A DNA stretch of 64,000 nucleotides from Escherichia coli. GTDB taxonomy: Bacteria; Pseudomonadota; Gammaproteobacteria; Enterobacterales; Enterobacteriaceae. Below the pieces are notes generated by a model, which searched no databases, was not told where the DNA came from, and saw nothing but the letters and a program-made list of their open reading frames with translations. The translations under genes were made by a program, and so were the position numbers. The stretch lies in the NCBI RefSeq assembly GCF_003991155.1, contig NZ_CP031295.1; one strand, written 5' to 3'. Positions 16,871-63,790 of the stretch are shown piece after piece. Numbering within the stretch: the first letter of the stretch is position 1; every line of letters begins with the position of its first letter.

Positions 16871-17097
16871 CTTTAAAAATCAGGATTTATTTCAGACTCC
16901 GGCAATACGCATTTATGTGTTCTGTCAGTCATCCGGCTGGCAGGTAATGAGAACGCAGGAACAGAAGGAGGAAAACACCGGAGAACGTCAGACGCAGATA
17001 TGAAAAAAGCAGGTCAGGGACCTGCTTAATCCACACCGCAGAGACTGCACGAACAGTCTTTACGGTTTCATTAATTAACGTCATAAGAGGCTAAATT

Positions 17098-17328
17098 ATG
17101 ACAGTAAGTATTGTTTCACCTTCCGCAGCGGCTGTAAAGCCCCGCCGTCATCCCCGTTTCAGACGCGAAGACATCCCCGCGCCGGAAATTGACCCCGTGC
17201 TGAAAGCCTTCGGGCGACACATTGCCCGGAGTTTTCACCGGGGGCGTGGTGTACACATCCCCGCCATGAAAAACACGGCCTTCGGGCAGGTGCTCCGCAC
17301 ACTCGAACTGAAACGCGCTTTTAACTGA
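17098..17328 (+). CDS. small basic hypothetical protein (76 aa)
   Basis: First ORF downstream of repeat copy 1; AGAGG RBS. Confidence 0.5.
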   Translation: MTVSIVSPSAAAVKPRRHPRFRREDIPAPEIDPVLKAFGRHIARSFHRGRGVHIPAMKNTAFGQVLRTLELKRAFN

Positions 17329-24270: not shown

Positions 24271-24491
24271 TGCGGCAACAATCACACGGATTTCCCGTGA
24301 ACGGTCTGAATGAGCGGATTATTTTCAGGGAAAGTGAGTGTGGTCAGCGTGCAGGTATATGGGCTATGATGTGCCCGGCGCTTGAGGCTTTCTGCCTCAT
24401 GACGTGAAGGTGGTTTGTTGCCGTGTTGTGTGGCAGAAAGAAGATAGCCCCGTAGTAAGTTAATTTTCATTAACCACCACGAGGCATCCCT

Positions 24492-24704
24492 ATGTCTAGT
24501 CCACATCAGGATAGCCTCTTACCGCGCTTTGCGCAAGGAGAAGAAGGCCATGAAACTACCACGAAGTTCCCTTGTCTGGTGTGTGTTGATCGTGTGTCTC
24601 ACACTGTTGATATTCACTTATCTGACACGAAAATCGCTGTGCGAGATTCGTTACAGAGACGGACACAGGGAGGTGGCGGCTTTCATGGCTTACGAATCCG
24701 GTAA
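24492..24704 (+). CDS. mok: mok-like overlapping leader ORF of the hok locus (flmC-like)
   Basis: ORF overlapping hok in another frame, as in hok/sok-type loci. Confidence 0.45.
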
Positions 24705-28458: not shown

Positions 28459-28564
28459 AAGAAATTTGACTTCGTTCAAATATCAGAGTTTTTATGATTT
28501 AAAAAGGTGACAGTACGAAAGATAATTAGTATATTAATTACGTGGTTAATGCCACGTTAAAATT

Positions 28565-28650
28565 TGAATTTGAAAATCGCCGATGCAGGGAGTTCTCTCC
28601 TCCCTGCATCGACTGTCCATAGAATCCTTTGTGAGGAGGTTCCTATGTAT
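28565..28650 (-). ncRNA. finP: FinP antisense RNA (complementary to the traJ leader)
   Basis: Stem-loop GATGCAGGGAG...CTCCCTGCATC in the traJ 5' UTR overlapping the traJ RBS; position as in F-like plasmids; boundaries approximate. Confidence 0.5.
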
Positions 28651-29334
28651 CCGATGGATCGTATTCAACAAAAACATGCTCGTCAAATAGATCTGCTGGA
28701 AAATCTGACGGCAGTTATTCAGGATTATCCAAATCCAGCCTGTATCAGGGACGAAACTGGAAAATTTATTTTTTGCAATACGCTGTTTCATGAGTCATTT
28801 CTTACACAAGATCAAAGTGCTGAAAAATGGCTTCTGTCGCAGAGAGATTTTTGTGAATTGATCTCTGTCACAGAGATGGAAGCATACAGGAATGAGCATA
28901 CGCATCTTAATCTTGTAGAGGATGTTTTTATTCAGAACAGATTCTGGACAATATCTGTCCAGTCATTTCTTAATGGACACAGAAATATTATTCTGTGGCA
29001 ATTTTATGATGCTGCTCATGTTCGTCATAAAGACAGTTATAATCAAAAAACGATTGTCAGTGATGATATCAGAAATATAATCAGAAGAATGAGTGATGAT
29101 TCTTCTGTATCATCATATGTAAATGATGTCTTTTACTTATATAGCACCGGAATCAGTCATAATGCTATAGCAAGAATATTAAATATATCCATCTCCACAT
29201 CAAAGAAACACGCATCTCTGATATGCGACTACTTCTCTGTTTCTAATAAAGATGAGTTAATTATCTTACTCTACAATAAAAAGTTTATTTATTATTTATA
29301 CGAGAAGGCTATGTGTATCATAAATACGCGTTAA
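28645..29334 (+). CDS. traJ: TraJ transfer activator
   Basis: MYPMDRIQQKHARQIDLLENLTAVIQDYPNPACIRDETGKF... matches F TraJ; GAGGAGG RBS. Confidence 0.9.
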   Translation: MYPMDRIQQKHARQIDLLENLTAVIQDYPNPACIRDETGKFIFCNTLFHESFLTQDQSAEKWLLSQRDFCELISVTEMEAYRNEHTHLNLVEDVFIQNRFWTISVQSFLNGHRNIILWQFYDAAHVRHKDSYNQKTIVSDDIRNIIRRMSDDSSVSSYVNDVFYLYSTGISHNAIARILNISISTSKKHASLICDYFSVSNKDELIILLYNKKFIYYLYEKAMCIINTR

Positions 29335-39970: not shown

Positions 39971-40606
39971 ATGATGAAGCTGAGTATGAAATCTCTGGCA
40001 GCACTGCTGATGATGCTGAACGGGGCGGTTATGGCGTCAGAAAACGTGAACACTCCTGAAAACCGCCAGTTCCTGAAGCAGCAGGAAAATTTAAGCAGAC
40101 AACTGCGTGAAAACCTGACCATCAGCTGAAAGCCGGGCGGAGAAGCAGGTGCTGGAAACCCCTTCAGCGTTCAGATAACCATTTCTGGATGAGCTGGTTC
40201 GTAAACAGCAGGCTTCGCAGGACGGGAAACCCGGCAGGGTGCTCTGTATTTTGTGTCGTTTTCCATTCCCGAAGAGGGGCTGAAACGAATGCTGGGCGAA
40301 ACCCGGCACTACGGTATACCCGCCACACTGCGGGGCATGGTGAACAATGACCTGAAGACCACCGCTGAAGCCGTGCTGTCCCTGGTGAAAGACGGCGCGA
40401 CTGATGGTGTTCAGATCGACCCGACGCTGTTTTCACAGTACGGCATTCGCAGTGTACCGGCACTGGTGGTGTTCTGCAGTCATGGATACGACATCATCCG
40501 GGGAAACCTGCGGGTCGGCCAGGCGCTGGAGAAAGTGGCCGCCACGGGTGACTGCCGGCAGGTGGCTCATGATTTACTGGCAGGGAAAGGAGATTCCGGG
40601 AAATGA
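39971..40606 (+). pseudogene. trbC: trbC disrupted by frameshift(s): N-terminal signal-peptide part and C-terminal part in different frames
   Basis: MMKLSMKSLAALLMMLNGAVMASENVNTPENRQFLKQQENLSRQLRENLTIS stops at 40126-40128; TrbC-like continuation (SFSIPEEGLKRMLGETRH ... GDSGK) is in another frame from 40253. Confidence 0.7.
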
Positions 40607-43446: not shown

Positions 43447-43815
43447 ATGAGTGAAGATTATTTGAAAATGTTTACAGGTGTTGTTCTGTTAATATTTGTC
43501 ATTATTGCCGGTTATTTCTTTTCTGAGCGTAATGACAGGAAAATGTTTCTCCTGAGCTCACTGGTTTTCCTTGTTATTAATATCGCGTGTTTATATGTGC
43601 TTACCGCCAGTCTCTGGTTTCTGTGTGGTGCAATTATGAGTCAGGGCGCAGCACTGGTTGTTTCAATAGTTGCGGCCGCATTACCGGACGTTACGAGCTT
43701 CGACAGGTTCAGAAGAATATTTATCTGTATTGTGTTGTCATCGGTATGGTCCGGAGTGATGTGGTTTTTTATAAGGGGGGCTTATGACAGGCTAAGTCAT
43801 ATAAAACGGTCATAA
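43447..43815 (+). CDS. trbA: TrbA
   Basis: 122-aa membrane protein between traF and traQ. Confidence 0.75.
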   Translation: MSEDYLKMFTGVVLLIFVIIAGYFFSERNDRKMFLLSSLVFLVINIACLYVLTASLWFLCGAIMSQGAALVVSIVAAALPDVTSFDRFRRIFICIVLSSVWSGVMWFFIRGAYDRLSHIKRS

Positions 43816-47019: not shown

Positions 47020-49838
47020 ATGAAGTTTATGTGATTGCCGGTGGTGAGTGGTTGCGGAATAACCTGAACGCCATTGCCGCCTTTATGGGAACCAGGACGT
47101 GGGATTCCATTGAAAAAATTGCGCTCACATTGTCTGTTCTCGCGGTGGCCGTAATGTGGGTACAGCGGCACAACGTGATGGATTTGCTGGGCTGGGTGGC
47201 CGTATTTGTGCTTATCAGCCTGCTGGTTAATGTCCGCACATCGGTGCAGATTATTGATAACAGTGACCTGGTCAAAGTTCACCGGGTGGATAATGTGCCG
47301 GTCGGACTGGCGATGCCACTTTCACTGACGACCCGTATCGGGCATGCAATGGTGGCCAGTTACGAGATGATCTTCACGCAACCGGACAGTGTCACCTACA
47401 GCAAAACGGGGATGCTGTTTGGCGCAGAACTGGTATCAAAAAGCACCGACTTTTTGTCCCGCAATCCGGAAATCGCCAATCTTTTCCAGGATTATGTGCA
47501 GAACTGTGTTATGGGGGATATTTACCTGAACCACAAATACACGCTGGAGGAGCTGATGGCCTCCGCTGATCCCTACACGCTGATTTTTTCCCGCCCCAGC
47601 CCGCTGCGGGGCGTTTATGACAGCAATAATAATTTCGTAACCTGTAAGGACGCGTCGGTTTCGCTGAAAGACAAGCTGAATCTGGACACACAGAGTGGCG
47701 GAAAAACCTGGCATTATTATGCCCAGCAGCTATTTGGTGGACGCCCTGATCCTAACCTGCTGTTCAGTACGCTGATTGGCGACAGTTACAGTTACTTCTA
47801 TGGCTCAAGTAAATCAGCCAGCCAGATCATCCGCCAGAATGTCACCATCAATGCGCTGAAGGAGGGGATCACCAGTTATGCCGCACGTAATGGTGATTCG
47901 GCCAGCCTGGTGAATCTGGCCACCACGTCATCGATGGAGAAACAACGTCTGGCACATGTCTCCATCGGTCATGTGGCGATGCGGACACTGCCCATGACGC
48001 AGACCATCCTGACGGGGATCGCCATCGGTATTTTCCCGCTCCTGGTACTGGCGGCTGTATTCAACAAACTGACGCTGTCTGTCCTGAAAGGTTATGTGTT
48101 TGCCCTGATGTGGCTGCAGTCATGGCCACTCTTGTACGCCATTCTGAACAGTGCCATGACATTTTATGCGAAACAGAATGGTGCGCCGGTGGTGCTCTCT
48201 GAAATTTCACAGATACAACTGAAATACTCCGATCTGGCTTCCACTGCCGGGTATCTTTCCATGATGATCCCGCCATTATCCTGGATGATGGTCAGGGGGC
48301 TTGGGGCCGGATTTTCCAGTGTGTACAGCCATTTCGCTTCCTCTGCTATCAGCCCGACTGCCAGTGCGGCAGGTAGTGTGGTTGACGGTAATTACTCCTA
48401 CGGCAACATGCAGACGGAAAACGTGAACGGCTTCAGCTGGAGCACCAACAGCACCACGTCGTTTGGTCAGATGATGTACCAGACCGGCAGTGGCGCAACC
48501 GCCACACAGACCCGTGACGGTAATATGGTGATGGATGCAAGCGGAGCGATGTCCCGTTTACCGGTCGGTATCAATGCAACGCGTCAGATTGCAGTGGCAC
48601 AACAGGAAATGGCCCGGGAGGCGTCGAACAGAGCAGAAAGTGCCCTGCATGGTTTCAGCAGCAGTATTGCCAGTGCCTGGAACACGCTCAGTCAGTTTGG
48701 TTCTAACCGGGGGAGCAGTGACTCTGTCACCAGTGGTGCTGACAGTACGATGAGTGCACAGGACTCCATGATGGCCAGCCGTATGCGCAGTGCAGTGGAA
48801 AGCTATGCGAAGGCGCATAATATCAGTAATGAGCAGGCGACTCAGGAACTGGCATCCAGAAGTACGAGAGCTTCTGCCGGGATGTATGGAGATGCTCATG
48901 CTGAATGGGGGGTTAAACCTAAAATTCTTGGTGTTGGTGGAGGATTAGGCGTTAGAGGTGGTGGTCGGGCTGGCATTGACTGGAGTGATGATGATGCGCA
49001 TCAGGCCAGCAGTGGTTCACGGGCCAGCTATGATGCTCGTCATGATATTGACGCTAAAGCCAGTAAGGACTTTAAAGAGGCCAGCGATTACTTTACCAGT
49101 CGCAAAGTCAGTGAATCCGGCAGCCATACTGACAATAATGCTGATTCCCGGGTGGATCAACTGTCTGCAGCCCTGAATTCAGCGAAACAGAGTTACGACC
49201 AGTACACGACGAATATGACCCGCAGCCATGAATATGCTGAAATGGCATCCCGTACTGAAAGCATGAGTGGGCAGATGAGCGAAGATTTGTCGCAACAGTT
49301 TGCACAGTATGTGATGAAACACGCACCGCAGGATGCCGAAGCTATTCTGACAAATACCAGTTCGCCGGAGATTGCAGAACGCCGTCGGGCAATGGCCTGG
49401 TCTTTTGTGCAGGAACAGATACAGCCTGGTGTTGATAATGCCTGGCGGGAATCCCGTGGCGATATTGGTAAAGGAATGGAGAGCGTACCTTCGGGTGGAG
49501 GCAGTCAGGATATTATTGCTGACCATCAGGGACATCAGGCCATTATTGAGCAAAGAACGCAGGACAGTAATATCCGTAATGATGTAAAACATCAGGTTGA
49601 TAATATGGTCACAGAATATAAAGGGAATATAGGTGATACTCAGAACAGCATACGTGGCGAGGAAAATATTGTAAGAGGACAGTATTCTGAACTGCAGAAT
49701 CACCATAAAACAGAGGCATTATCTCAGAATAATAAATATAATGAAGAAAAGTCGGCTCAGGAAAGAATGCCCGGGGCTGACAGTCCACAGGAACTGATGA
49801 AAAGGGCAAAGGAGTATCAGGATAAGTATAAGCAATAA
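47016..49838 (+). CDS. traG: TraG (mating-pair stabilisation / entry exclusion partner)
   Basis: 940 aa; F order. Confidence 0.95.
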   Translation: MNEVYVIAGGEWLRNNLNAIAAFMGTRTWDSIEKIALTLSVLAVAVMWVQRHNVMDLLGWVAVFVLISLLVNVRTSVQIIDNSDLVKVHRVDNVPVGLAMPLSLTTRIGHAMVASYEMIFTQPDSVTYSKTGMLFGAELVSKSTDFLSRNPEIANLFQDYVQNCVMGDIYLNHKYTLEELMASADPYTLIFSRPSPLRGVYDSNNNFVTCKDASVSLKDKLNLDTQSGGKTWHYYAQQLFGGRPDPNLLFSTLIGDSYSYFYGSSKSASQIIRQNVTINALKEGITSYAARNGDSASLVNLATTSSMEKQRLAHVSIGHVAMRTLPMTQTILTGIAIGIFPLLVLAAVFNKLTLSVLKGYVFALMWLQSWPLLYAILNSAMTFYAKQNGAPVVLSEISQIQLKYSDLASTAGYLSMMIPPLSWMMVRGLGAGFSSVYSHFASSAISPTASAAGSVVDGNYSYGNMQTENVNGFSWSTNSTTSFGQMMYQTGSGATATQTRDGNMVMDASGAMSRLPVGINATRQIAVAQQEMAREASNRAESALHGFSSSIASAWNTLSQFGSNRGSSDSVTSGADSTMSAQDSMMASRMRSAVESYAKAHNISNEQATQELASRSTRASAGMYGDAHAEWGVKPKILGVGGGLGVRGGGRAGIDWSDDDAHQASSGSRASYDARHDIDAKASKDFKEASDYFTSRKVSESGSHTDNNADSRVDQLSAALNSAKQSYDQYTTNMTRSHEYAEMASRTESMSGQMSEDLSQQFAQYVMKHAPQDAEAILTNTSSPEIAERRRAMAWSFVQEQIQPGVDNAWRESRGDIGKGMESVPSGGGSQDIIADHQGHQAIIEQRTQDSNIRNDVKHQVDNMVTEYKGNIGDTQNSIRGEENIVRGQYSELQNHHKTEALSQNNKYNEEKSAQERMPGADSPQELMKRAKEYQDKYKQ

Positions 49839-51366: not shown

Positions 51367-53507
51367 ATGAGTTTTAACGCAAAGGATATGACCCAGGGCG
51401 GTCAGATTGCGTCCATGCGTATCCGCATGTTCAGTCAGATCGCCAATATCATACTTTACTGCCTGTTTATTTTTTTCTGGATCCTAGTTGGTCTGGTTTT
51501 ATGGGTAAAAATAAGCTGGCAGACGTTTGTGAATGGCTGCATTTACTGGTGGTGCACCACGCTGGAAGGCATGCGGGATTTAATCAGGTCCCAGCCGGTC
51601 TATGAGATCCAGTATTACGGCAAAACCTTCCGGATGAACGCGGCTCAGGTACTGCATGATAAATATATGATCTGGTGCGGAGAGCAGCTATGGTCCGCAT
51701 TCGTTCTGGCCACAGTTGTGGCACTGGTTATTGCCTGATTACCTTCTTTGTTGTCTCACGGATTCTGGGGCGTCAGGGTAAACAACAGAGCGAAAATGAA
51801 GTCACAGGTGGTCGTCAGCTGACAGACAATCCGAAAGACGTTGCCCGGATGCTGAAAAAGACGGCAAGGACTCCGATATACGGATTGGCGACCTGCCGAT
51901 TATCCGGGATTCCGAAATCAGAACTTCTGTCTGCACGGCACGGTCGGGGCCGGTAAGTCGGAAGTTATCCGTCGTCTGGCCAACTACGCCCGTCAGCGTG
52001 GAGATATGGTGGTGATTTATGACCGTTCAGGGAATTTGTTAAAAGTTACTATGATCCCTCCATCGATAAAATCCTGAATCCGCTGGATGCCCGCTGTGCC
52101 GCACGGGATTTGTGGAAGAGTGCCTGACACAGCCAGATTTTGATAATACCGCAAATACTCTGATCCCGATGGGGACAAAAGAGGACCCGTTCTGGCAGGG
52201 TTCAGGACGTACCATTTTTGCGGAAGCGGCATACCTGATGCGTAATGACCCCAACCGCAGCTACAGCAAACTGGTGGACACACTGCTTTCCATCAAAATT
52301 GAAAAGCTGCGTACCTTCCTGCGTAATTCACCGGCGGCCAACCTGGTGGAAGAGAAAATCGAGAAAACGGCCATATCCATCCGTGCTGTGCTGACCAACT
52401 ACGTGAAAGCCATCCGTTACCTGCAGGGGATTGAGCATAACGGTGAGTCTTTACCATCCGTGACTGGATGCGTGGTGTCCGGAAGATCAGAAAAACGGCT
52501 GGCTGTTTATCTCGTCGAATGCCGACACCCATGCCTCCCTGAAGCCGGTGATCTCCATGTGGCTGTCCATTGCCATTCGTGGTCTGCTGGCAATGGGAGA
52601 AAACCGTAACCGTCGTGTGTGGTTTTCTGTGATGAGCTACCCACGTTACACAAACTGCCGGACTGGTGGAGATCCTGCCGGAAGCCCGTAAGTTCGGTGG
52701 CTGTTATGTGTTTGGTATCCAGTCTATGCCCAGCTGGAAGATATCTACGGTGAAAGCGGCTGCCACGCTGTTTGACGTCATGAACACCCGTGCCTTTTTC
52801 GTTCTCCCAGCCATAAGATTGCAGAGTTCGCTGCCGGTGAGATTGGTGAGAAAGAGCACCTGAAAGCCAGCGAGCAGTATTCCTACGGTGCTGATCCGGT
52901 ACGTGACGGGGTATCGACCGGTAAGGATATGGAGCGTCAGACGCTGGTCAGTTATTCCGACATTCAGTCTCTGCCGGATCTGACCTGTTATGTCACCCTG
53001 CCCGGACCGTATCCGGCAGTAAAACTCTCCCTGAAATATCAGACACGACCGAAGGTCGCTCCGGAGTTTATTCCGCGTGACATCAACCCGGAAATGGAGA
53101 ACCGTCTGAGTGCCGTACTTGCCGCAAGGGAAGCAGAAGGTCGTCAGATGGCCAGCCTCTTCGAACCGGATGTCCCGGAGGTTGTTTCCGGAGAAGACGT
53201 GACTCAGGCTGAACAGCCGCAACAGCCGGTGTCTCCTGCCATCAACGATAAGAAGTCAGATGCAGGTGTGAATGTTCCGGCAGGGGGGATCGAGCAGGAG
53301 CTGAAAATGAAACCGGAAGAAGAGATGGAACAGCAACTGCCACCCGGGATCAGTGAATCCGGTGAAGTGGTGGATATGGCCGTTTATGAGGCATGGCAAC
53401 GGGAGCAGAATCCGGATATCCAGCAGAAGATGCAGCGTCGTGAAGAGGTGAACATCAATGTGCACCGGGAGCGCGGGGAGGATGTTGAGCCGGGAGATGA
53501 TTTCTGA
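51367..53507 (+). pseudogene. traD: traD (coupling protein) fragmented into at least five reading-frame segments
   Basis: TraD-like peptide runs in ORFs 51367-51738, 51675-51956, 52112-52609, 52666-52863 and 52929-53507, each in a different frame; Walker [12 protein letters not shown] is in yet another frame near 51935. Confidence 0.8.
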
Positions 53508-53515
53508 TGAACAGG

Positions 53516-53914
53516 TCAGCTCCAGTCTTCAATTCTCAGACCGTCCACACGTTCAAATTCCCGGGTGTTATTAGTCACAATAATCAGTCCCCGACTGCGG
53601 GCATGACCTGCGATCATTTGATCAAATGGCCCGACAGGGCGTCCCTGACGGGCAAGTTCTGCTCTTATCTGGCCGCTGTGTGTGGCTGCGGCAGCGTCGT
53701 AATCCAGAACATCAATGCGGGAAACAAATCCCTCGATCACAGCGAGATTACGTTCAGGCATCTGGCTTTTTTCTGCACCATATATCAGCTCCATCAGGGT
53801 GACCGAACTGATACACATTCTCCCCTGGTTCAGGTTAAAACGCTCCCTGACGCTGGCGGGTTTGTTCTTTATCGTGAAAATGCAGATGTTGGTATCGAGC
53901 ATAAACTTCAGCAT
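53516..53914 (-). CDS. vapC: VapC PIN-domain toxin
   Basis: MLKFMLDTNICIF PIN N-terminus; 132 aa. Confidence 0.85.
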   Translation of the reverse strand: MLKFMLDTNICIFTIKNKPASVRERFNLNQGRMCISSVTLMELIYGAEKSQMPERNLAVIEGFVSRIDVLDYDAAAATHSGQIRAELARQGRPVGPFDQMIAGHARSRGLIIVTNNTREFERVDGLRIEDWS

Positions 53915-54141
53915 CAGAATGACTCCCTTTCCTGCATGCCGGGCTGTTCCCTGTTATCCATAAAATCGGCGCTGACGTTGTGTCCGTCGAACCATTCGTC
54001 CCATGTCTCTCCGGCTGGCGTAATGATTCTGGTTCGTCCGACAGCAATCACTTCAACGCGTTTTACGTTTTCCGGCAATGCAACCGCTTTTGGCAGTCTG
54101 ACCGCCTGGCTGCGGTTGCTGAAAAATACGGTGGTTTCCAT
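53914..54141 (-). CDS. vapB: VapB antitoxin
   Basis: 75-aa ORF immediately upstream of, and coupled to, vapC. Confidence 0.8.
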   Translation of the reverse strand: METTVFFSNRSQAVRLPKAVALPENVKRVEVIAVGRTRIITPAGETWDEWFDGHNVSADFMDNREQPGMQERESF

Positions 54142-54222: not shown

Positions 54223-57200
54223 ATGATGAGTATCGCGCAGGTCAGATCGGCCGGAAGTGCCGGTAACTATTATACCGACAAGGATAATTACTATGTGCTG
54301 GGCAGCATGGGAGAACGCTGGGCCGGCAGGGGGGCTGAACAGCTGGGGCTGCAGGGCAGCGTCGATAAGGATGTTTTTACCCGTCTTCTGGAGGGGAAGC
54401 TGCCGGACGGAGCGGATTTAAGCCGCATGCAGGATGGCAGTAATAAGCATCGTCCCGGCTACGACCTGACCTTCTCCGCCCCCAAAAGTGTCTCCGTGAT
54501 GGCCATGTTAGGCGGTGATAAACGTCTTATTGATGCACATAACCAGGCCGTGGATTTTGCTGTCCGTCAGGTGGAGGCGCTGGCTTCCACACGGGTTATG
54601 ACGGACGGACAGTCAGAAACGGTGCTGACCGGTAATCTGGTGATGGCACTGTTTAACCACGACACCAGTCGCGATCAGGAACCACAGTTACACACACATG
54701 CGGTAGTGGCCAATGTCACGCAGCATAACGGCGAGTGGAAGACATTGAGCAGTGACAAAGTGGGGAAAACGGGGTTCATTGAGAATGTGTACGCTAATCA
54801 GATTGCCTTCGGCAGGCTCTACCGGGAAAAACTGAAAGAGCAGGTTGAGGCGCTAGGCTATGAAACGGAAGTGGTTGGTAAGCACGGTATGTGGGAGATG
54901 CCGGGCGTACCGGTGGAGGCCTTCTCCGGACGCTCACAGGCTATCCGGGAGGCCGTCGGGGAAGACGCCTCGCTGAAATCCCGGGATGTGGCGGCACTGG
55001 ATACGCGAAAATCCAAACAGCACGTCGATCCTGAAGTCAGAATGGCTGAATGGATGCAGACGCTGAAGGAAACCGGGTTCGACATCCGGGCGTATCGTGA
55101 CGCGGCGGACCAACGGGCGGAGACCCGCACGCAGACGCCCGGACCCGCTTCACAGGACGGGCCGGATGTGCAGCAGGCGGTGACACAGGCCATTGCCGGA
55201 TTAAGTGAACGCAAAGTGCAGTTTACGTACACGGACGTGCTGGCCAGAACGGTCGGCATACTGCCGCCGGAAAATGGTGTGATTGAACGGGCACGCGCCG
55301 GTATCGATGAGGCCATCAGCCGTGAGCAGCTTATCCCCCTCGATCGTGAGAAGGGGCTGTTCACGTCCGGGATTCATGTGCTCGATGAGCTGTCAGTCCG
55401 GGCACTCAGTCGTGACATCATGAAACAGAACCGGGTGACCGTACATCCGGAGAAAAGTGTCCCCCGGACGGCCGGTTACAGCGATGCGGTCAGTGTTCTG
55501 GCACAGGATCGCCCGTCGCTGGCTATTGTGTCCGGGCAGGGCGGTGCAGCCGGGCAGCGTGAGCGGGTGGCGGAGCTGGTCATGATGGCCCGGGAGCAGG
55601 GGCGGGAGGTGCAGATTATCGCCGCTGACCGTCGCTCGCAGATGAACCTGAAGCAGGATGAACGGCTGTCCGGTGAGCTGATAACCGGACGTCGTCAGCT
55701 GCAGGAGGGCATGGCCTTCACGCCGGGCAATACTGTTATCGTTGACCAGGGCGAAAAACTCTCCCTGAAAGAGACGTTAACCCTGCTGGACGGTGCCGCA
55801 CGTCATAACGTACAGGTCCTGATAACCGACAGCGGGCAGCGAACCGGTACAGGCAGTGCACTGATGGCCATGAAAGATGCCGGGGTGAACACATATCGCT
55901 GGCAGGGGGGAGAACAGCGGCCGGCCACCATCATCAGTGAACCGGACCGTAATGTCCGCTATGCCCGGCTGGCAGGAGATTTTGCTGCCAGCGTGAAAGC
56001 CGGAGAAGAGAGCGTGGCACAGGTCAGCGGGGTACGGGAACAGGCCATACTGACACAGGCCATTCGCAGTGAGCTGAAAACACAGGGCGTGCTCGGACGC
56101 CCGGAGGTAACCATGACCGCCCTGTCGCCGGTCTGGCTGGACAGCCGGAGCCGTTATCTGCGGGATATGTACCGTCCGGGGATGGTGATGGAGCAGTGGA
56201 ACCCGGAGACACGCAGTCATGACCGCTATGTTATCGACCGGGTGACGGCGCAGAGTAACAGCCTGACCCTGCGGGATGCGCAGGATGAAACGCAGGTGGT
56301 GCGTATTTCCTCCCTGGACAGCAGCTGGTCGCTGTTCCGGCCGGAAAAAATGCCGGTGGCAGACGGCGAGCGACTGAGGGTGACAGGGAAAATTCCCGGA
56401 CTCCGCGTCTCCGGCGGTGACCGCCTGCAGGTGGCATCCGTCAGTGAAGATGCGATGACGGTTGTTGTGCCGGGGCGGGCTGAACCGGCCTCCCTGCCTG
56501 TGAGCGATTCACCATTCATGGCACTGAAGCTGGAGAACGGCTGGGTGGAAACGCCCGGGCATTCCGTCAGCGACAGTGCGAAGGTTTTTGCCTCCGTCAC
56601 ACAGATGGCAATGGACAACGCCACCCTGAACGGTCTGGCCCGCAGCGGTCGTGATGTCCGGCTGTATTCCTCACTGGATGAAACCCGTACTGCGGAAAAA
56701 CTTGCCCGCCATCCCTCCTTTACGGTGGTTTCTGAGCAGATAAAGGCGCGTGCCGGTGAGACATTGCTGGAAACCGCTATCAGTCTGCAGAAAACCGGGC
56801 TTCACACGCCGGCACAGCAGGCTATTCATCTGGCGCTTCCTGTGGTGGAAAGTAAAAACCTGGCCTTCAGCATGGTGGACCTGCTGACAGAGGCGAAGTC
56901 GTTTGCTGCAGAAGGAACCAGTTTTACTGAACTGGGAGGGGAAATCAATGCGCAGATAAAACGCGGTGATTTACTGTATGTGGATGTGGCAAAAGGCTAT
57001 GGCACAGGCCTGCTGGTTTCCCGTGCGTCGTATGAGGCAGAAAAGAGCATTCTTCGCCATATTCTCGAAGGTAAGGAGGCGGTCACGCCACTGATGGAGA
57101 GAGTACCTGGCGAACTCATGGAGAAACTGACATCAGGACAGCGTGCCGCTACCCGCATGATACTGGAAACGTCCGACCGTTTCACGGTGGTGCAGGGCTA

Positions 57201-60317: not shown

Positions 60318-61178
60318 ATGAAAATTACGGATCACAAACTCCCTGAAGGTATTGCCCTGACATTTCGTGTCCCGGAAGGAAATATAAAACATCCTTTGAT
60401 TCTCTTATGCCATGGATTTTGCGGTATCCGGAATGTTCTGCTGCCTTCCTTTGCGAATGCGTTTACAGAAGCCGGGTTTGCAACGATTACTTTTGATTAT
60501 CGTGGATTCGGTGAGAGTGAAGGGGAACGAGGTCGTCTGGTTCCGGCAATGCAGACCGAAGATATTATTTCAGTTATCAATTGGGCAGAAAAGCAGGTAT
60601 GTATTGATAATCAGCGTATAGGATTATGGGGAACATCGCTGGGTGGGTGTCATGTATTCAATGCAGCTGCGCAGGATAAAAGAGTGAAAAGTATTGTCAG
60701 CCAGCTGGCTTTTGCTGACGGTGAGGTTCTGGTTACCGGAGAAATGAATGAACTGGAGAAAGCTTCTTTTCTGTCCACGCTGAATAAAATGGCAGAAAAG
60801 AAGAAAAATACCGGGAAAGAGATGTTTGTGGGGGTTACCCGGGTACTGAGTGATAATGAATCAAAGGTATTCTTCGAGAAGGTAAAAGGTCAGTATCCTG
60901 AAATGGATATAAAAATACCTTTCCTTACGGTTATGGAGACGTTGCAATATAAACCGGCAGAGAGCGCAGCCAAAGTACAGTGCCCAGTTTTGGTTGTTAT
61001 TGCCGGCCAGGATAGTGTTAATCCACCAGAACAGGGAAGAGCCTTATATGATGCTGTTGCTTCTGGTACTAAGGAATTATACGAGGAAGCTGACGCATGC
61101 CATTATGATATTTATAAAGGCGCGTTTTTTGAACGTGTGGCGGCAGTACAGACGCAATGGTTTAAAAAACATCTTTAA
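60318..61178 (+). CDS. alpha/beta-fold hydrolase
   Basis: GxSxG nucleophile elbow (LWGTSLGGC) and HGFCG oxyanion-hole-like motif; 286 aa. Confidence 0.7.
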   Translation: MKITDHKLPEGIALTFRVPEGNIKHPLILLCHGFCGIRNVLLPSFANAFTEAGFATITFDYRGFGESEGERGRLVPAMQTEDIISVINWAEKQVCIDNQRIGLWGTSLGGCHVFNAAAQDKRVKSIVSQLAFADGEVLVTGEMNELEKASFLSTLNKMAEKKKNTGKEMFVGVTRVLSDNESKVFFEKVKGQYPEMDIKIPFLTVMETLQYKPAESAAKVQCPVLVVIAGQDSVNPPEQGRALYDAVASGTKELYEEADACHYDIYKGAFFERVAAVQTQWFKKHL

Positions 61179-61280
61179 TTGTCGGTATTAATATGTCAGA
61201 GGTCGTTGAGGTCAGCTTAATATCATAGTGAGTAGTTTCAACGACCTGGAGGACATATTTTCACAAAGGTCAGGGCAATC

Positions 61281-61841
61281 ATGACAGAGCAGAAACGACC
61301 GGTACTGACACTGAAACGGAAAACGGAAGGGGAAACACCGACCCGGAGCCGGAAAACCATCATCAATGTCACCACGCCACCAAAATGGAAGGTGAAAAAG
61401 CAGAAACTGGCGGAGAAGGCTGCCCGGGAAGCAGAGCTGGCGGCGAAGAAAGCACAGGCCAGACAGGCGCTGTCCATTTATCTGACGCTGCCCTCGCTGG
61501 ATGAGGCGGTGAACACTCTGAAACCTTGGTGGCCGGGATTGTTTGACGGTAACACGCCCCGGCTTCTGGCCTGCGGTATCCGGGACGTGTTACTGGAAGA
61601 CGTGGCGCAGCGGAATATCCCGCTCTCGCATAAAAAACTGCGCCGGGCGCTGAAGGCCATCACCCGTTCAGAAAGCTATCTGTGTGCCATGAAAGCCGGT
61701 GCCTGCCGGTATGACACGGAAGGGTATGTGACGGAGCATATTTCTCAGGAGGAGGAAGCGTATGCGGCAGGGCGTTTGGAGAAAATTCGCCGCCAGAACC
61801 GGACAAAGGCAGAACTTCAGGCCGTGCTTGATGGGAAATAA
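61281..61841 (+). CDS. finO: FinO fertility inhibition protein (intact)
   Basis: 186 aa, Lys-rich N-terminus; matches FinO as recalled. Confidence 0.9.
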
Positions 61842-61846
61842 AAAAA

Positions 61847-61875
61847 GCCTCCCCGGAAACCGGGGAGGCTGAAAC
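61847..61875 (+). terminator. rho-independent terminator after finO
   Basis: AGCCTCCCCGGAAACCGGGGAGGCT hairpin. Confidence 0.7.
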
Positions 61876-61976: not shown

Positions 61977-62189
61977 ATGAATGGATTCAGAAACAGTTCA
62001 CGGAACGGTCAGGTCTGGCGTTACCAGCGTGCCGGCGGGCGGGCCGTTATTCTGGAGGTCAGTGGACGCTGGATGGAAGCGGCAGAAGCATGGCGACGGG
62101 CTGCCTGCATAGCTCCCCGGACAGACTGGCAACAGTTTGCCCGGAAAAGGGCTGAACACTGCCACCGGCGCTGCCGGGGAAGGGTGTAA
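61977..62189 (+). CDS. small basic hypothetical protein (70 aa)
   Basis: ORF with AGGGAGG RBS; Arg/Trp-rich; uncertain. Confidence 0.35.
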   Translation: MNGFRNSSRNGQVWRYQRAGGRAVILEVSGRWMEAAEAWRRAACIAPRTDWQQFARKRAEHCHRRCRGRV

Positions 62190-62869
62190 CGAAAAAAGCA
62201 GCCTTCATTACTCCAGGAGTCAGAAGGCTGAAAGGAGTTTATGAGATTTGCTTTTTTTAATATCCGGTCGGGCAGTATGACCGGCCAGTTCTGAGTAGCA
62301 CAGAGTTTTTTCCGTATTAAGTCGCGATTTTATATTTTGTGATTAATTTCACAAAATAAGGTCTTATTCAATGTGTGCTGCGATATTCAGGGGGGCTGAA
62401 ATACAGGTGCCATTTATCTGATATGGAGAATAACATGAGGAAATATATTCCACTGGTATTATTTATCTTTTCATGGCCGGTATTGTCTGCAGATGTTCAC
62501 GGGCAGATTTATGCACCAGACAGAATGAATGTTAATTAGTTTATGAATACAACAGGGGCTGATCAGCAATCACCGGAACATCGTAGCTGACGCGTTCGCA
62601 ATGCTCAGTTGTCCCCCCCGGAAACGGGAAAAAGTAAGTTTTCCCCCGCTCCCGGCGTTTTTGTAACAAAAACAGGCAAATGGGGGTAATAGTCAGCAAC
62701 AGGGAATGTGGTATTATCGCGGCGGGTGTTTGAGCCTTTCTGGTTCAGGCAAGACGCAGGTACCAGAAATGCGAAGACCCCACTCGTTAATCCATTAACT
62801 CGTGAGGTCTGCATGAAGTACCTTAACACTACTGATTGTAGCCTCTTCTTTGCTGAGAGGTCAAAGTTT

Positions 62870-63019
62870 ATGACGAAATATGCCCTTATCGGGTTGCTCG
62901 CCGTGTGCGCCACGGTGTTGTGTTTTTCACTGATATTCAGGGAACGGTTATGTGAGCTGAATATTCACAGAGGAAATACAGTGGTGCAGGTAACTCTGGC
63001 CTACGAAGCACGGAAGTAA
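62870..63019 (+). CDS. srnB: Hok/Gef-family toxin (SrnB/PndA-like, 49 aa) with in-frame upstream extension from 62813
   Basis: MTKYALIGLLAVCATVLCFSLIFRERLCELNIHRGNTVVQVTLAYEARK resembles the Hok toxin at 24550. Confidence 0.75.
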   Translation: MTKYALIGLLAVCATVLCFSLIFRERLCELNIHRGNTVVQVTLAYEARK

Positions 63020-63560: not shown

Positions 63561-63689
63561 ATATTCACATTCTTGCTTATCTCAGGAGTGAGTGGTAGAT
63601 TGCTGATCGTTTAAGGAATTTTGTGGCTGGCCACGCCGTAAGGTGGCAGGGAACTGGTTCTGATGTGGATTTACAGGAGCCAGAAAAGC

Positions 63690-63790
63690 GAAAACCCCGA
63701 TAATCTTCTTCAAGTTTGGCGACTAGAAAGATTACCGGGGCCCCATAAAACCGCATAGCCAACAATTCAGCTATGCGGGGAGTATAGTTA
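63690..63790 (-). ncRNA. copA: putative CopA antisense RNA / CopT target region
   Basis: Long imperfect hairpins (CCCCGATAATCTT...AAGATTACCGGGG and CCGCATAGC...GCTATGCGG) between copB and the leader peptide; boundaries approximate. Confidence 0.35.

Follow-up and report, generated by a model that had tools for sequence, protein, structure and literature searches.

finO and its neighbourhood at the distal end of the tra region

Within the window (the whole stretch of Escherichia coli DNA that was analysed, 64,000 nucleotides in length), an ORF scan identified finO, the gene for the RNA chaperone FinO, at positions 61281..61841 on the plus strand. The gene begins with ATG and continues uninterrupted through 186 codons and a stop codon, which confirms what a previous reading of the sequence alone (the sequence-only reading) had proposed, namely that finO is a complete ORF of this length. 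Two Pfam domains were found in its product, FinO_N (PF12602; residues 1-62, E=1e-38, 131.5 bits with a cutoff of 25) and ProQ/FinO (PF04352; residues 73-177, E=3e-27, 95.1 bits with a cutoff of 27). In addition, the NCBIfam model NF010317 ('fertility inhibition protein FinO') was matched at 356.9 bits (cutoff 136) over model positions 1-185 of 186, and the PDB entry 1DVO, the solved structure of R100/R6-5 FinO (residues 33-184), was matched with E=4e-92. Identity to the 1DVO sequence extended to 143 of its 152 residues, the nine substitutions being conservative-looking, and W36, a residue of the N-terminal helix that is said to act in strand exchange, is retained. With a full-length ORF, both domains above the curated thresholds and a match to 1DVO that includes W36, the product belongs to the FinO family.

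The gene occupies the distal end of the tra region, and the order traI - traX - orf286 - finO is the same as in pAR349 and R100. In R100, an ANR-family gene follows finO as it does here, and R100 FinO, also of 186 aa and with the same domain layout, shares 177 of its 186 residues with the protein studied (nine differ). On the other hand, the F plasmid (NC_002483.1) has a finO that is split by IS3 and aligns with the window in two pieces, which are merely 92-94% identical to it at the DNA level. The site that corresponds to the IS3 insertion (codons ~131-134; 61673..61681), where alignments between the window and F break, is contiguous here, and neither an insertion sequence nor a frameshift, the lesions that characterize the derepressed F type, breaks the gene. 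The sequence-only reading had set this plasmid apart from derepressed F, and it was right on this point.

This part of the plasmid is widespread. The 2.4 kb around finO are 100% identical in many IncF plasmids, including pAPEC-O1-ColBM, and at least 99% identical in 375 records; the finO coding sequence itself is matched exactly in both pO83_CORR and pAR349. A simple promoter scan revealed no convincing dedicated promoter for finO. Directly downstream of the stop codon, a terminator scan detected an 11-bp GC-rich hairpin (61846..61870; fold of -24.1 kcal/mol, z=-5.1), which is likely to form the 3' end structure of the finO mRNA. Its T-run is located on the minus-strand side (AGCCTCCCCGGTTTCCGGGGAGGCT TTTTTTATTT), so that the hairpin should be a better intrinsic terminator for minus-strand transcripts arriving from downstream than for finO.

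The gene directly upstream of finO, orf286 (60318..61178, plus strand; 286 aa), encodes an alpha/beta hydrolase (Pfam Abhydrolase_1). It scored 504 bits against the NCBIfam equivalog model for UilS-family N-acyl-homoserine lactonases (cutoff 400), whereas Pfam assigned it to the alpha/beta hydrolases only. A quorum-quenching lactonase UilS has been characterized in Serratia, in a report where plasmid homologues go unmentioned (PMC11633161). R100, pAR349 and pO83_CORR carry orf286 as well, whereas F does not; in pO83_CORR the orf286 region is slightly different from that of the window. The idea that orf286 is a marker that separates strong (R6-5) from weak (R100) repressors was dropped because the R100 record carries orf286. 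We regard orf286 as genomic context of finO only, and no role in the FinOP system is implied.

In the spacer between the two genes, a long stable hairpin (61190-61259, plus strand) is followed by AUAUUUUC; the F plasmid lacks this hairpin just as it lacks orf286. The fold of 61176-61290 has a predicted energy of -31.5 kcal/mol (z=-4.1), and the hairpin could be either a leaky terminator or an element that stabilizes or processes the finO mRNA. It is conceivable, if distinctly unlikely, that orf286 and finO are co-expressed as a two-gene module with this conserved-looking hairpin in the 102-nt gap. Co-transcription, if it occurs, would link the repression of conjugation with the degradation of a quorum signal in many F-like plasmids, but not in F. 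A full-text literature search found nothing on a link between orf286 and finO.

Several additional elements were observed in the window. Just downstream of finO, an antisense RNA whose original description was from plasmid pHK01 (Rfam AS-pc02, 181.9 bits; 62086-62271, minus strand) overlaps the 3' end of the gene for the 70-aa ANR-family regulator (61977-62189, plus strand). Other antisense RNAs of the pHK01 type, AS-traI (57072-57148), AS-traG (47735-47820) and AS-pc01 (17004-17103), were all found on the minus strand above the Rfam thresholds. Two sok-type antitoxin RNAs are located in the leading region (24376-24552) and beside the replicon (62724-62882), both on the plus strand. An IncFII-type replicon begins directly beyond the finO region, its start being marked by a CopA antisense RNA (63686-63774, minus strand). 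A vapBC toxin-antitoxin pair, with both genes intact, lies between traD and traI (53516-54141, minus strand), as it also does in pAR349 and in the F record.

FinP and the traJ leader

The second component of the system was identified at the opposite end of the tra region, on the minus strand at 28573..28651, where the Rfam FinP model (RF00107) matched over its full length (positions 1-76) at 98.6 bits (gathering threshold 45, E=8e-19). The 79-nt RNA coincides with the FinP-like hairpin that the sequence-only reading had noticed antisense to the traJ leader at about 28565-28650. Its parts, assigned by folding and sequence comparison, are a 5' GAUA, stem-loop SLI (28647-28618), a GACA spacer (28617-28614), stem-loop SLII (28613-28579; 14 bp with the 7-nt loop GAGAGAA at 28599-28593) and the tail GAUUUU (28578-28573). 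The predicted fold is very stable (-38.5 kcal/mol, z=-6.9), none of 200 shuffled sequences folded as stably, and both the minimum free energy structure and the centroid contain the two stem-loops. A candidate, sigma-70-like FinP promoter was found by promoter scan at 28658..28686 on the minus strand, with -35 TTGACG (28686-28681), a 17-nt spacer and -10 TACGAT (28663-28658), which would place the 5' end of FinP (28651) 6 nt past the -10 element. This promoter is a consensus match, yet its sequence is identical to that of F. Thus, the score, the antisense placement, the arrangement of two stem-loops, GACA spacer and U-tail, and the predicted promoter of its own all assign this RNA to the FinP family. 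Chance is no plausible source of these features, nor of those of finO.

The -10 element of the predicted FinP promoter is overlapped by a GATC (Dam) site at 28657-28660. Dam methylation reportedly stimulates finP transcription in pSLT.

On the opposite strand, FinP spans the ribosome binding site (RBS; GAGGAGG, 28633-28639) and the ATG (28645-28647) of traJ. The 105-nt traJ 5' leader, the FinP target (28540..28644, plus strand), was detected by Rfam RF00243 (28540..28650, 124.3 bits) and is predicted to fold into stem-loops that mirror those of FinP, SLIIc (28581-28611) and SLIc, the latter with the RBS, preceded by a 5' hairpin. Upstream of the leader, the promoter scan predicted a traJ promoter, PJ (28507..28535, plus strand; GTGACA, 17 nt, TATATT), with 10 of 12 consensus matches. 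The traJ gene itself (28645..29334, plus strand) encodes a 229-aa protein that activates PY, the promoter of the tra operon; it was assigned by the NCBIfam F-type TraJ equivalog NF010275 at 541.7 bits. This protein is 100% identical to the TraJ of pAR349, whose accession (WP_000283385.1) is shared with the TraJ of F; F and window TraJ are the same protein.

The traM-traJ-traY segment is 100% identical in many database plasmids and 99.2% identical in F. Half of the 12 differences from F are concentrated at 28593-28599, that is, in the loop of FinP SLII, which reads UUCACGU in F and GAGAGAA here. This is the sole difference between the two FinP RNAs: SLI, the spacer, the SLII stem, the tail and the promoter are all identical, and so is the entire sequence from 28600 to 28886, which includes the FinP promoter. 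The R100 allele differs by a single change each in the SLI loop and the SLII stem and has GUCGCU as its SLII loop, and R100 TraJ (WP_000283561.1) also differs from that of the window. The FinP loop allele found here is common among plasmids; the exact 90-nt FinP region is present in 533 PLSDB plasmids, which, together with the 375 records of the finO region, implies that these alleles are maintained. Our full-text literature search found no name for this allele, which may be of the ColB2 type.

Single-base deletions in traD and trbC

In the sequence-only reading, lesions in traD and trbC were considered to make transfer competence doubtful. The lesions are indeed present in the sequence. When aligned with pAR349 and translated, traD (51367-53507) shows 13 single-base deletions (51731-52799) and many in-frame stops, and trbC (39974-40606) shows six single-base deletions within 120 bp (40109-40229), which produce about 40 garbled codons with three stops before the frame is restored. 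If these frameshifts were real, the plasmid could not transfer itself whatever FinOP does. The FinOP system, although intact, would then be a relic of a dead tra region and could act at most in trans, with FinO stabilizing FinP-like RNAs from other plasmids in the same cell; an action of FinO on RNAs of this kind from other plasmids is known (PMC8136791).

Several observations argue against this explanation. None of the deletions was found in any of the 4,502 plasmid (PLSDB) and 3,287 E. coli genome records, and the best database matches were always longer than the window, by 13 bases in traD and by six in trbC. The 19 private deletions are accompanied by almost no private substitutions; the deletions were counted from pairwise alignments, as the tally of private differences misses some of them where their placement shifts between references. 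When traD was compared with three reference alleles, nearly all of the substitutions were in the third position of codons read in the correct frame, and this held downstream of the frameshifts as well. Furthermore, 38 other genes that were checked, from the SLT transglycosylase gene to the ANR-family gene, are full-length with 96-100% amino acid identity, the end of trbA excepted. Decay would not be expected to place 19 deletions in 1.2 kb while sparing the rest.

That a region which is pristine elsewhere should contain so many deletions, and hardly any private substitutions, within 1.2 kb points to a local sequence error. Natural decay of the two genes was accordingly ranked low, both because of how far deletions outnumber substitutions and because of the codon positions at which the differences lie. 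It is therefore quite probable that the traD and trbC deletions are a sequence-quality artefact and not pseudogene decay, and that the tra region is truly dead seems rather unlikely. The lesions provide weak grounds for doubting transfer competence, and this part of the sequence-only reading does not hold well even though the lesions themselves were read correctly.

Close to the 3' end of trbA, a one-base insertion in a G-run at 43775 relative to pAR349 changes the last four residues and lengthens the ORF to 122 aa. A further homopolymer error is a possible cause.

Probable repression by FinOP and the place of the plasmid among F-like plasmids

We consider it very probable that the FinOP fertility-inhibition system in the window, which is that of a classical F-like plasmid (MOBF12 group A), is complete and functional. 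The finO gene, finP, the traJ leader and traJ are all present and intact, belong to the expected families and are identical to alleles that have been tested experimentally. The most informative comparison is with pO83_CORR (NC_017659.1), an F-like plasmid of the adherent-invasive E. coli NRG857c. Its finO coding sequence and its counterpart of the segment 28000-29400, which comprises traM, PJ, the leader, finP with its promoter and traJ, are exact matches to the window, and the accessions of its FinO (WP_000139315.1) and TraJ (WP_000283385.1) are the same. Deletion of finO in pO83_CORR derepressed a PY reporter and raised traK and traG mRNA ~100-fold (PMC12491478). This is direct evidence, from pO83_CORR, that the combination of alleles represses actively. 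It should be mentioned that most of the traB-traH block, with traV and traC among its genes, is missing from pO83_CORR but present in the window. Binding and stabilization of FinP by FinO and repression of traJ in vivo thus appear to be supported indirectly, through the identical finO allele of pO83_CORR, and from this we infer that FinOP is expressed and represses in the replicon studied as well. The proposal that tra expression is kept low in this plasmid gains support from this identity, from the uninterrupted state of the site at which F carries IS3, and from a TraJ that is the same as that of F.

The way in which repression would operate can be outlined from the arrangement of these elements and from previous studies. 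FinP would be transcribed constitutively from its own antisense promoter inside the start of traJ, and its stem-loops, being exactly complementary to the traJ leader, would form loop-loop kissing contacts that proceed to a duplex. This duplex would hide the RBS and start codon of traJ and would be exposed to degradation, so that little TraJ would be made. FinO, whose gene lies at the opposite end of the tra region, would bind FinP at the SLII base and at the 3' tail, block cleavage by RNase E at the GACA spacer and accelerate the pairing of FinP with traJ; it has been described that FinO recognizes the SLII base and the 3' tail, that RNase E attacks the GACA spacer, and that FinO both shields FinP from RNase E and speeds FinP-traJ pairing (PMC8136791). 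With TraJ low, PY would be mostly off, a small fraction of cells would be transfer-competent, and transfer would be rare until cells escape stochastically or the plasmid enters a new host. The same mechanism and the same FinP layout (two stem-loops, a GACA spacer and a 3' U-tail) apply to the FinOP system of Salmonella pSLT (PMC8136791), although pSLT FinO has 188 aa and both the FinO protein and the FinP and traJ alleles differ from those of the window.

F-like plasmids are said to differ in the level of FinO-mediated repression. That FinOP is present here and yet represses weakly or is easily overridden, because of low finO expression or of FinO substitutions, with near-derepressed transfer as a result, is a very improbable explanation: the promoter scan gave no clear finO promoter and FinO differs at nine residues from R100 and at nine from the 1DVO sequence, but conservation extends to W36 and to the FinO domain in full, and identical FinO, FinP and traJ alleles repress ~100-fold in pO83_CORR.

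A functional and repressing FinOP system is also what would be expected from the distribution of finO among relatives of this plasmid. Group A F-like plasmids are all finO+ and repressed, with the exception of F, whose transfer exceeds that of the other group A plasmids by two to three orders of magnitude (PMC5102898, PMC7690428). Repressed here means a low fraction of transfer-competent donors and not zero transfer; under FinOP, ~1-10 donors per 1000 escape repression (PMC4010749).

The FinOP module described here is standard and already known, and its combination of alleles is very common. Given that hundreds of sequenced plasmids share these alleles, the observation is correct but unremarkable. 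Its value lies in annotation: the plasmid belongs with the normal, repressed majority of F-like plasmids and not with the derepressed F type, so that ~0.1-1% of donors should transfer it and new transconjugants should show transient bursts. As for traD and trbC, the 'pseudogenes' in the record are probably sequence errors, and they offer no basis for calling the plasmid non-conjugative.
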